From Shigella phage Sf18, in sequence record MF158044: a stretch of 64,000 nt of DNA; one strand, given 5' to 3'. The notes beneath the pieces were generated by a model that saw nothing but the letters and a program-made list of their open reading frames with translations, did no database searches and was not told the DNA's origin. Within the stretch, counting starts at the first letter, position 1. Each line of letters begins with the position of its first letter. Made by a program: the position numbers and the translations under genes. Shown here piece by piece: positions 41,104 to 42,492 of this stretch.

Positions 41104-41253
41104 TAATCCTCTTTGCAGTGACTTATGGAGCTAACCAGTCGTCCCATGAGTGCCGAAGAGTCTCTTGAGCATGATTCTAGATTAGCTTACTAAGAGACAA
41201 CTCTACAAACCCTTTAGCAAGGTTTGCGTAGGTTACTGCAAAGATGATTTAAT

Positions 41254-41329
41254 GGAAGTGTAGCAGAATGGTGATGCGGCAGACTTTTAATCTGACAGGC
41301 GACGGGTTCGAATCCCTCCACTTCTACCA
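41254..41329 (+). tRNA. tRNA-Lys (anticodon UUU)
   Basis: Anticodon loop CTTTTAA, A73, CCA; weak T-stem shared with the other Lys tRNA. Confidence 0.6.
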
Positions 41330-41410
41330 AATTCGCCCCTTAACTGAAGAACACATGCGCGGCTGGAAACACCCACTCAATCAGTTCTCTACAAAGGGGC
41401 AACTTATAAT

Positions 41411-41487
41411 GGTTCAGTCGCAGATAAGGTAATGCAAGGGTTTCATAAGCCCTATGAATGTGGGTTCGATTCCCACCTGAACCTCCA
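41411..41487 (+). tRNA. tRNA with CAU anticodon (Met or Ile2)
   Basis: Acceptor GGTTCAG/CTGAACC, anticodon loop TTCATAA, T-arm GTGGG-TTCGATT-CCCAC, CCA. Confidence 0.65.
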
Positions 41488-41489
41488 AT

Positions 41490-41564
41490 TGTGGGTTAGC
41501 ATAAATGGTAATGCAAACGGCTGATAACCGTTAGAAGAGGGTTCGATACCCTCACCTACAACCA
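41490..41564 (+). tRNA. tRNA-Ile (anticodon GAU)
   Basis: Anticodon stem AACGG/CCGTT loop CTGATAA, T-arm GAGGG-TTCGATA-CCCTC, A73, CCA. Confidence 0.7.
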
Positions 41565-41578
41565 ATTTCATAAAGTTG

Positions 41579-41607
41579 TTGACATTCAGATGTGACCACT
41601 TTAAGAT
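41579..41607 (+). promoter_or_regulatory. sigma70-like promoter inside tRNA array
   Basis: TTGACA-N17-TAAGAT upstream of ~210-nt unassigned segment and tRNA-Arg. Confidence 0.45.
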
Positions 41608-41821
41608 AACCTTAGTTTTCGTTAGCGTAGCGTCTATTTTAAAAACTTAAAAATAAATGCAAACGATAATGTTTTTCTGGCAGTAGCTTAATAGGCTAAA
41701 CACCAGCAGGGTATTCCAACTCCCTGTTAAAGAATTTGGCGTACTAGCCCACGGTATGATTAATAAAGTGGGCATCTTTAAGGGTTTTCTAAGAGAGCCT
41801 TTAAAGATAATGCACCCTTAG

Positions 41822-41898
41822 TTCAAACGGATAGAGCAACGGTCTTCTAAACCGTCAGTTACAGGTTCGAATCCTGTAGGGTGTGCCAATTAGTTAGC
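41822..41898 (+). tRNA. tRNA-Arg (anticodon UCU)
   Basis: Anticodon stem ACGGT/ACCGT loop CTTCTAA, T-arm ACAGG-TTCGAAT-CCTGT, CCA. Confidence 0.75.
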
Positions 41899-42012
41899 AG
41901 ATTACTACGACGACCTTTATGGGTCTCCGCATTGACTTGAAAGAGTCAATCTCATAAGGAGGTGGTCTGTATCTCATGTTTTCCAGAACATGTAAATAAT
42001 CTGAGAAGAAGC

Positions 42013-42041
42013 TTGACAGTGTTGAGATAACAGGGTAAGCT
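42013..42041 (+). promoter_or_regulatory. sigma70-like promoter inside tRNA array
   Basis: TTGACA-N17-TAAGCT, ~13 nt upstream of tRNA-Trp-like gene. Confidence 0.4.
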
Positions 42042-42053
42042 TCGAATTATAGT

Positions 42054-42136
42054 ATGGGACGATGTTAAGACACTAAGGCATGTGCGACGGCCTCCAAAAC
42101 CGTTTCAAATGGGTTCGAATCCTACGTCCCATGCCA
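42054..42136 (+). tRNA. tRNA-Trp-like (anticodon CCA), atypical
   Basis: Anticodon loop CTCCAAA, G73, CCA, acceptor ATGGGAC/GTCCCAT; extra ~7 nt between acceptor and D-stem. Confidence 0.4.
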
Positions 42137-42149
42137 AAGTCTTATTAGG

Positions 42150-42239
42150 GGTAGGTAGCGGCTAATGGAAGCCAAATAGTCTTGAAAACTATTGCCATTG
42201 TAGAGATACGGTGAGGGTTCGACTCCTTTATCTACCGCC
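42150..42239 (+). tRNA. tRNA-Ser (anticodon UGA), class II
   Basis: Anticodon stem ATAGT/ACTAT loop CTTGAAA, long variable arm, G73; CCA only partly encoded. Confidence 0.65.
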
Positions 42240-42492
42240 TAATAAGATTTAAAGCTGAGACTCGCTGTTCGGGCAAGTGTTTCAGGTTTCCTCTTCGTGT
42301 ATTGGCGTACACGGCACTGGTAAAGCACCTAGTAGGTGTCACGGAGAAGAGATAGTATCAAGCTCTCCAAAGGTTCTAGTCACCGGATTAAGCAAGACTA
42401 TGCAAAGGCCAATAGGTCTTTTTAGAGAATTGTTAAGGCATTTGATACCATTGTTGCTTTGGCGTCTTAGCAGTTCTCTACAAAGATTTAAT

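Follow-up and report, generated by a model that had tools for sequence, protein, structure and literature searches.

The window analysed here, 64,000 nucleotides of Shigella phage Sf18 (sequence record MF158044), contains within its tRNA array three structured stretches, termed segments A, B and C, that are not tRNA genes. We read segment B, from its sequence and predicted fold, as derived from the mRNA-like and pseudoknot half of transfer-messenger RNA (tmRNA), without the tRNA half. The chances are about even that it is a small RNA of about 200 nucleotides that provides a tag template, likely for a reaction of the trans-translation type. On the same kind of evidence, the three segments are of different kinds: A and C are hairpin spacers restricted to one lineage, and B represents an RNA family that crosses phage families.

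Sf18 is a Felix-O1-like phage of the Ounavirinae, with Shigella phage ESh19 as the top match (97.7% over 40800-42600). ARAGORN located 25 tRNA genes, all on the + strand, between 40075 and 45003, and 23 of them were confirmed by Rfam at gathering score. Neither ARAGORN nor Rfam at gathering score placed a tRNA in segments A, B or C. An earlier note on this DNA had singled out these stretches for their strong symmetry and lack of a tRNA fold. The strings it named are all present, with small shifts in coordinates, and the symmetry is borne out: the predicted folds were better than those of dinucleotide shuffles (z-scores of −2.77 for A with its 5' flank, −4.64 for B and −2.44 for C), and the helices of A and B carry compensatory changes.

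The tag frame and fold of segment B

The TTGACA-N17-TAAGAT promoter that had been proposed in front of segment B is present. The parts assigned to this promoter and the RNA behind it are as follows.

41579..41607, + strand: sigma-70-type promoter; TTGACA 41579-84, 17-nucleotide spacer, TAAGAT 41602-07; 10/12 in a consensus scan
41614..41811, + strand: segment B, tmRNA-like tag-module RNA, from its putative start to the RNase P site of tRNA-Arg
41614..41655, + strand: tentative PK1-like pseudoknot in the 5' region, read from the sequence; 41614-19 with 41642-47, 41635-40 with 41650-55
41653..41694, + strand: resume context and tag frame; AUAAAU, then the GCA frame 41659-41688 and UAA UAG 41689-41694
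41677..41706, + strand: helix-5-like hairpin (H5); CUGG 41677-80 with CCAG 41703-06, stop codons in the apical part
41707..41739, + strand: pseudoknot PK2; stem 1 41707-11 with 41722-26, loop CCAA 41716-19 with UUGG 41736-39
41740..41773, + strand: pseudoknot PK3; stem 1 41740-45 with 41753-58, stem 2 GCCCAC 41747-52 with GUGGGC 41768-73, loop UGAUUAAUAA
41774..41808, + strand: terminal hairpin AUCUUUAAGGG...CCUUUAAAGAU, 35 nucleotides, in both the minimum-free-energy and centroid folds; followed by AAU and G1 of tRNA-Arg
41812..41888, + strand: tRNA-Arg(UCU), found by ARAGORN and Rfam

At the equivalent place in T1-like phages, TTGACA-N17-TAGATT lies directly 5' of the homologous RNA; the promoter scan overall gave no more sites than were found in shuffles. 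We infer a transcription start near A41614. Since tRNA-Arg(UCU) begins 3 nucleotides past the terminal hairpin, RNase P cleavage there would, by standard pre-tRNA maturation, make the 3' end of the segment B RNA.

The central feature is a short frame that begins with GCA at 41659 and reads GCA AAC GAU AAU GUU UUU CUG GCA GUA GCU UAA UAG, that is, ANDNVFLAVA followed by two stops. It is preceded by an A-rich stretch with U(−5)A(−4) ahead of the resume codon (AAAAAUAAAU-GCA at 41649-41661), as in tmRNA; the layout in Escherichia coli ssrA is AAAAAAUAGUC-GCA..., with the tag ANDENYALAA. The 14-mer ATAAATGCAAACGA is invariant in an alignment of five family representatives, among which the other tags are ANEEMYLAVA, ANDNTFLAVA and ANDDVVLMAA. 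ARAGORN, run at a 90% threshold, gave the identical resume site and tags. No in-frame ATG, GTG or TTG is present 5' of the tag in the window sequence, and none appears in the list of open reading frames (ORFs), so that ordinary initiation is unlikely. The frame is thus tag-like, without a start and closed by a stop, as expected of a tmRNA.

A frame of 10 codons was found in 125 of the 125 listed copies, with 17 different tags. Among 38 distinct tag regions, variation was lowest at codon position 2; at codon 6, for example, the entropies at positions 1, 2 and 3 were 1.50, 0.69 and 1.52. Synonymous pairs were frequent (GAU/GAC, AAU/AAC, GAA/GAG, UUU/UUC and CUG/UUG), codon 10 was GCN with every third base represented, and the stop was TAA in 35, TAG in 2 and TGA in 1, with no insertions or deletions. 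The distant copy of Erwinia phage M7 preserves ANDAQFLAVA through the synonymous changes AAC>AAU and GUA>GUG. By this pattern of variation, the tag frame looks like a decoded sequence. The tags also resemble working degrons, in having (A)ANDxx[F/Y] and an Ala/Val-rich end.

The fold was examined in an alignment (A2) of 47 diverse copies of the module, in which 36 base pairs were tested. Pairing was found in 90.5% of cells, compared with 36-48% when partners were slid, and double-change cells numbered 129 against 41 ± 6.5 in shuffles, none of 500 of which reached 129. H5 (A2 columns 111-114/140-143) showed double changes in all four of its pairs at 94% pairing. Stem 1 of PK2 was 98.7% paired with three of five pairs compensatory, and its stem 2 was 100% paired with three of four compensatory (CCGA/UCGG, CCAG/CUGG, CCAA/UUGG and UCGA/UCGA). 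In PK3, stem 1 was 99.6% paired with two compensatory pairs, and stem 2 covaried, including the longer variants CCCUGA/UCAGGG and GACGGGAG/CUCCCGUC; the loop UGAUUAAUAA was invariant in most copies. RNAalifold independently recovered two of the stems. The PK1-like helices were 71% and 91% paired in A2, with scant covariation and in a part where the alignment is poor. A stop codon in helix 5 and pseudoknots around the message, with PK1 upstream tentative, are features that the module has in common with tmRNA.

This covariation bears on the opposite strand, where an ORF of 42 amino acids (41647-41775, − strand) has ends that coincide with the core conserved in BLAST matches. As a conserved element it was rejected: across the 47 copies its length ranges from 15 to 63 amino acids and its frame and start shift, and the variation among copies follows the pattern of compensatory base pairing. 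The probability that segment B is a small protein gene on that strand is practically negligible.

Comparison with Rfam pointed in the same direction as the tag. Five copies from four phage families gave matches to tmRNA_permuted of 22-35 bits at the tag region, below threshold, and several of the five also matched beta_tmRNA, alpha_tmRNA or tmRNA at relaxed thresholds. These alignments match the phage sequence to the consensus 'UAAAUGCaAACGA...UAA' together with the pseudoknot after it, and the resume region aligns to the consensus of both tmRNA_permuted and beta_tmRNA. The tmRNA_permuted score was 34.7 bits with tRNA-Ile included and 17.4 without it (gathering threshold 47); the tmRNA model gave 12.4 bits (threshold 47) and alpha_tmRNA 20.3 (threshold 50). 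The scores against tmRNA families thus lie at 12-35 bits, below gathering thresholds of 47-84. The Rfam scan that the earlier note had proposed therefore yielded sub-threshold tmRNA-family matches in B, and no tRNA at gathering score in A, B or C.

The reciprocal comparison used a covariance model built here (R1), which spans the tag, H5, PK2 and PK3. R1 found a single copy per genome, the window included, where the copy, a seed member, scored 135.8 bits. Copies outside the seed scored 148.2 (E. coli prophage), 104.2 (Erwinia phage M7), 67.2 (Klebsiella phage GArcari-2022a) and 63.0 bits (ECBP1). Among true tmRNAs, R1 matched E. coli ssrA at its message region (24.6 bits, E 0.01) and two others, L234 and L194, at 24.1 and 20.8 bits. 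A scan of the genome collection with the 14-mer ATAAATGCAAACGA returned mostly chance matches, with true tmRNAs as 5 of 120, and is therefore uninformative on the origin of the module.

By definition a tmRNA unites two halves, tRNA and message, within a single molecule or a base-paired complex. Segment B has no tRNA-like domain with a G3:U70 acceptor stem, T-arm and 3' CCA; neither a T-arm nor an acceptor is formed between the promoter (41607) and tRNA-Arg (41812). The 5' acceptor and helix-2 strands expected of the coding piece of a two-piece tmRNA are absent too, as the RNA begins at the PK1-like region after the promoter. Neither the window nor any of 126 homologous segments yielded a tmRNA call from ARAGORN with default settings. 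The 'permuted tmRNA' calls that it makes at 90% borrow neighbouring real tRNAs, other elements or module B, a tRNA-derived element described below.

Distribution and surroundings of the tag module

A sensitive blastn search with 41600-41815 matched 632 phage records, in almost all of which annotation under the match is absent. Carriers outside the Ounavirinae include the T1-like Klebsiella virus KpV2811 (46 kb; its record states no family), the Ackermannviridae Taipeivirus UPM 2146 and Kuttervirus PhiSH19, Det7 and SFP10 (Vi1-like), the G7C-type Schitoviridae IME11 and ECBP1, and Sashavirus and others. In an E. coli lambdoid prophage, the module lies within a gap of 870 nucleotides between the antiterminator Q and holin genes. 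A pattern scan of IMG/VR gave at least 120 loci. Phages T1 and P22 have no copy, and Rfam 15 has no family covering the module. Conservation in relatives, on which the earlier note had made its proposal depend, was found within the Ounavirinae for A and C and across phage families for B.

In T1-like phages the promoter is followed by the RNA, with no tRNA in 3.2 kb. In G7C-like loci (L074 and L075) an intrinsic terminator lies about 100 nucleotides after the module, and there is no tRNA-like element. With its own promoter, a terminator and no tRNA neighbour, the module behaves as a free-standing unit. In UAB_Phi87-like Felixounaviruses (L024, L052, L087 and L109), an insertion of about 100 nucleotides separates the promoter region from the start of the module, and hence the promoter arrangement of the window is not universal in the subfamily.

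In other phages (e.g. L008, L015, L017, L005 and L076), the module is one cassette in an array of structured RNAs. Each cassette is bounded by a long 'helix A' stem (CACAACAGGUAAGAGCAUUG ... CAGUGCUCUUUCCGUUGUGG) around an insert that varies, carries T-arms in some cases and has been shuffled from locus to locus; where segment B has its terminal hairpin, other phages have a longer helix A cassette. Helix A is of about 20 base pairs, in which one A is bulged, U faces U in a mismatch, and the third pair from the apex is a conserved U.G wobble (in about 80 of 89 cassettes). We considered it as an acceptor stem of the alanine type, since a permuted reading gives a conserved G3.U70-like wobble, and rejected it, as the bases that follow are variable and include no CCA.

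Module B begins within 500 nucleotides 3' of the tag module in 87 of the 125 listed loci. It has a closing stem GUUGUGGUG/CACCACAAC and, in most copies, the 5' hairpin AUGCGCAGGCUGAUGCGC in place of a D-arm, with a canonical D-arm in L045. The anticodon arm is replaced by a variable insert, and the hairpin on the 3' side takes the form of a canonical T-arm in some loci. In Kuttervirus (L004, L095, L060 and L077), a conserved tRNA-like element of about 125 nucleotides, not called as a tRNA, lies about 15-140 nucleotides after the tag module. Its acceptor stem is GCCGUUA/AAACGGC and its long internal helix AUCUGACU/AGUCAGAU; it has a T-arm and ends in an encoded U-CCA. Genes for tRNA-Arg(UCU) and tRNA-Met/Ile(CAU) are often near the module. 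We infer that these tRNA and tRNA-like elements act as RNase P punctuation that would set the ends of the tag RNA. Rfam matches in the flanking cassettes of homologous loci were tRNAs and one int-alpA RNA, and nothing else; the latter (RF02996, 43.7 bits; L017 264-330, − strand) lies past the terminator that ends the prophage cassette array.

Among the interpretations offered in the earlier note, that of a small RNA suits segment B, which is conserved, structured, promoter-fronted and, in our reading, derived from the message half of tmRNA, a more specific identity than had been guessed. A search of the literature on phage tmRNA-like and permuted tmRNA and on RNAs of phage tRNA clusters gave no description of the module, and no match was found for the six commonest tag peptides. 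In the literature searched, no tmRNA form without a tRNA half is described, and natural forms without a message are known. We class this message-only tmRNA derivative as an unannotated and apparently undescribed variant, although an earlier description may exist.

Segments A and C and the permuted tRNA-like element

The features of segments A and C and of an element beside A are listed below.

40982..41101, + strand: circularly permuted tRNA-like element, closed by AGACCGU 40982-88 with ACGGUCU 41095-41101
41013-29, + strand: anticodon-arm-like hairpin of the permuted element
41034-50, + strand: T-arm of the permuted element
41051-57, + strand: acceptor 3' strand of the permuted element, then AC and the acceptor 5' strand 41060-66
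41069-83, + strand: D-arm of the permuted element
41111..41243, + strand: segment A, a long hairpin that branches (outer helix of 16 bp, one inner stem) and ends 10 nucleotides before tRNA-Lys
42240..42492, + strand: segment C, from the fold and an alignment of 12 Ounavirinae; followed by UUUAAU and tRNA-Leu
about 42252-42290, + strand: variable hairpin of segment C
42296-42313, + strand: second hairpin of segment C
42320-42410, + strand: near-invariant core of segment C, including GCACCTA-G-TAGGTGT 42325-39
42414-42489, + strand: long hairpin of segment C

Segments A and C match Ounavirinae only. The outer stem of A pairs CTTTGCAGT (41111-41119) with ACTGCAAAG (41235-41243), and the inner stem pairs GAGTCTCTT (41158-41166) with AAGAGAC (41192-41198). 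The outer helix was 100% paired in nine Ounavirinae, with two compensatory pairs, and the inner stem covaried within the clade of the window. In C, a core of about 90 nucleotides with two or three small hairpins is almost invariant across the Ounavirinae between variable flanks, and the long hairpin is retained despite a 12-nucleotide insertion and base changes. The core has no Rfam match and no consistent ORF, and the whole of segment C gave no Rfam match at E<5. As had been noticed earlier, the palindrome GCACCTA-G-TAGGTGT is identical to both acceptor strands of the adjacent tRNA-Leu(TAG) (42493-42569). Since it is kept where the next tRNA is not tRNA-Leu, it did not arise from the adjacent gene by local deletion.

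A base of (U)CUUU...AAAGAU is common to the hairpins of A and C and the hairpin that ends B, and in each case (U)UAAU and the 5' end of a tRNA come next. A and C have what is expected of pre-tRNA leader hairpins, a stable helix a few nucleotides before the tRNA with compensatory changes. Hence they are probably leader structures, specific to the Ounavirinae, of a polycistronic tRNA precursor, with a role in its processing or stability. The same could be proposed for segment B, as a cis-acting element for pre-tRNA processing, stability or termination in which the likeness to tmRNA is a relic: it too lies inside the tRNA array, ends 3 nucleotides before tRNA-Arg, and shows the hairpin-UAAU-tRNA pattern of A and C. 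However, the module occurs without an adjacent tRNA, behind its own promoter in T1-like phages, in lambdoid late leaders and before a terminator, and a relic is unlikely to keep a frame and covarying pseudoknots across families. We consider a spacer role for segment B very unlikely.

The element that abuts segment A has a T-arm, an acceptor with its 3' strand first, and a D-arm, in the order seen in YrlA-type and other permuted tRNA-like RNAs. It was found in the window and in 12 Ounavirinae loci and, among the locus set, only in this subfamily. The acceptor was 98% paired over three Ounavirinae clades, with double changes in 3 of 7 pairs, and one clade encodes G-CCA after its 3' strand. The sole Rfam match was to tRNA (28.8 bits, threshold 29) at 40984-41058, with no match to YrlA or tmRNA_permuted at E<5. 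The earlier note had also suggested tRNA-derived pseudogenes. This suggestion holds loosely, in that tmRNA is a relative of tRNA and a permuted tRNA-like element abuts A, and fails as to the pseudogene, which is not supported for B, given its conservation with covariation across phage families.

These tRNA-like neighbours raise the question of whether the module is part of a complete but unconventional tmRNA, with its tRNA-like domain in cis or in a second piece. Candidates for this domain are tRNA-Arg, module B, the CCA-ending element of Kuttervirus and the permuted element 550 nucleotides upstream of the module. A tRNA or tRNA-like element does come after the module in most families, the permuted gene is laid out like the start of a permuted tmRNA gene, and in L076 and L080 the tmRNA calls of ARAGORN at 90% take their 3' tRNA domain from the T-arm end of module B. 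Nevertheless, G3:U70 is absent from module B, the Kuttervirus element and the permuted element, as from all the candidates, and CCA is not conserved. No pairing with the tag RNA exceeded that of shuffled controls, and RNase P should cut tRNA-Arg off the module. Moreover, the permuted element is confined to the Ounavirinae, and some copies of the module have no tRNA-like neighbour. A complete tmRNA of this sort is distinctly unlikely.

An origin of the segments as intron or homing-endonuclease remnants, also considered in the earlier note, was not borne out: the six-frame list holds no ORF remnant, no intron-family Rfam match was found at E<5, and 40800-42600 of the window contains no HNH gene. 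Intact HNH homing-endonuclease genes are present in the same array spacers of Sf16, Michonne, heid and Felix O1.

Other observations concern the array itself. Two atypical tRNAs were missed by ARAGORN: 40635-40715, in which the variable arm is long, resembles tRNA-Tyr(GUA) (Rfam tRNA, 22.8 bits), and 42056-42136 resembles tRNA-Trp(CCA), ARAGORN naming tRNA-Trp in the related loci L069 and L120. Directly 5' of the latter, at about 42013-42041, a promoter-like site TTGACA-N17-TAAGCT was seen by eye; the scan's own call there is a weaker, overlapping one at 42022-42050. The spacer 41330-41410 between tRNA-Lys and tRNA-Met holds a structured insert inside the stem GCCCCUU/AAGGGGC and the motif CAGTTCTCTACAAAG, which occurs a second time at 42471-85; the spacer is 84.6% like an unannotated stretch in the 150-kb Klebsiella phage K18PH07C1. 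An ORF of 265 amino acids (44030-44827) lies within the array between tRNA-Phe and tRNA-Ser(GCT), and since the GTG listed as its start overlaps tRNA-Phe, it probably begins further downstream.

Possible roles and comparison with known systems

With its signature of decoding, the tag frame has service as a tag template as its most likely function. Transcription of the segment B RNA would start at its own sigma-70 promoter and would also reach it by read-through from the tRNA array, and an RNase P cut at tRNA-Arg would free its 3' end. In infected cells, stalled ribosomes would then use the tag frame as their template in an event of the trans-translation type, with the tRNA-like entry step supplied elsewhere, by host tmRNA-SmpB or by a neighbouring tRNA-like RNA. 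The more specific proposal of a free-standing message module that is read by ribosomes in at least five enterobacterial phage lineages, and that gains entry from host tmRNA-SmpB, module B or the permuted element, we regard as unlikely.

Several points weigh against a tag template. To our knowledge, no mechanism reads a tmRNA message domain without a tRNA-like domain that is linked to it covalently or by base pairing. The best duplex predicted between the tag RNA and the region of the permuted element and segment A (−19 kcal/mol) was within the range of shuffles (−18.5 ± 2.4), no significant complementarity to E. coli tmRNA was found, the duplex of the long sequences being no better than shuffles, and the window encodes no SmpB homologue. 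Codons 7-10 lie inside a helix, so that conservation of the frame could be partly structural, and the pattern search fixed 24 nucleotides, which inflates the apparent invariance there. Lastly, in the divergent copy of Klebsiella phage GArcari-2022a the frame is interrupted by UAG at codon 5. This copy (L251, 495-635; 67.2 bits) also has AUAACU, not AUAAAU, ahead of GCA, and it may be decaying or may use a tag of four residues.

The main rival is a decoy or inhibitor, in which the RNA would go untranslated, mimic the message and pseudoknot ring of host tmRNA, and titrate S1, RNase R or the frame-setting surface of SmpB, thereby damping trans-translation or the decay of non-stop mRNA. A tag RNA without any tRNA-like domain suits this role, as does the invariance of the PK3 loop UGAUUAAUAA in most copies, which would be fitting for a binding site. 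A mirror-image precedent exists in the mycobacteriophage DS6A form, which is little more than a tRNA-like domain; a molecule similar to it strongly inhibits tmRNA, perhaps via titration of SmpB (PMC4131195, PMC11915505). A decoy, however, has no need of an intact frame, and three-base periodicity, synonymous changes and swaps among TAA, TAG and TGA are not expected of one. The coding signature as we read it argues against a decoy, which we hold to be possible, if on the unlikely side.

Returning to the tag template, an apparently decoded module that consists of the message only would point to a possible new route for feeding a template to stalled ribosomes. If it is indeed read by ribosomes, trans-translation could take its template from a separate RNA, and phages could re-programme the tags on stalled proteins. 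As a decoy, it would instead be an inhibitor, of natural origin, of the rescue of stalled ribosomes, which is being explored as a target for antibiotics. A further question on which the module touches is the reason for tRNA arrays in phages: here tRNAs for rare codons are carried along with tRNA-like cassettes and a derivative of a rescue RNA. The module also fills a gap in the annotation of many therapeutic-phage genomes. Its carriers number in the hundreds, with Felix O1, Vi1-like, T1-like and G7C-like phages among them along with lambdoid prophages, and both possibilities can be tested in model phages and standard hosts.

Among non-tRNA products of phage tRNA clusters, the stable RNAs C and D of phage T4 (species 1 and 2) are freed by tRNA-type processing. 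They are likened to segment B here by description only; we know of no sequence relation between them and of no tag frame in the T4 RNAs. The permuted element is like YrlA-type Y RNAs and permuted tmRNA genes in its T-arm, 3'-strand-first acceptor, D-arm and outer helix, and unlike them in lacking an Rfam match to YrlA or tmRNA_permuted and G3:U70, and in having an extra anticodon-arm-like hairpin.

Segment B is most like tmRNA (RF00023, RF04321 and RF01850), especially the coding piece of permuted two-piece tmRNA. Both have an A-rich leader, U(−5)A(−4) and GCA, a start-less tag of about 10 codons (ANDxxxxLAVA in the phages, ANDENYALAA in E. coli) with a stop in helix 5, and H-type pseudoknots 3' of the tag, and their models match each other weakly. 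Segment B differs in having no acceptor stem, G3:U70, T-arm or CCA, in its length (about 200 nucleotides compared with about 360), in having two clear pseudoknots after the tag and a doubtful PK1, and in being encoded by phages, behind its own promoter or within tRNA arrays or late leaders.

Complete phage tmRNAs have been described in mycobacteriophages of cluster C (such as Bxz1), in Bacillus phage G and in huge phages (PMC4131195, PMC11915505). The pipeline of the 2025 tmRNA database required CCA-tail positions (PMC11915505), and since candidates without them are dropped, message-only forms would go unrecorded. Mitochondrial tmRNAs of jakobids and oomycetes and some plastid tmRNAs have lost the tag frame (PMC11915505, PMC3590771); they, too, have lost one half, but keep the tRNA-like half, the reverse of segment B. 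The DS6A form is likewise a phage-borne tmRNA derivative with half of the molecule kept, and the truncation in segment B is the opposite one, in which the message and pseudoknot half alone is retained.

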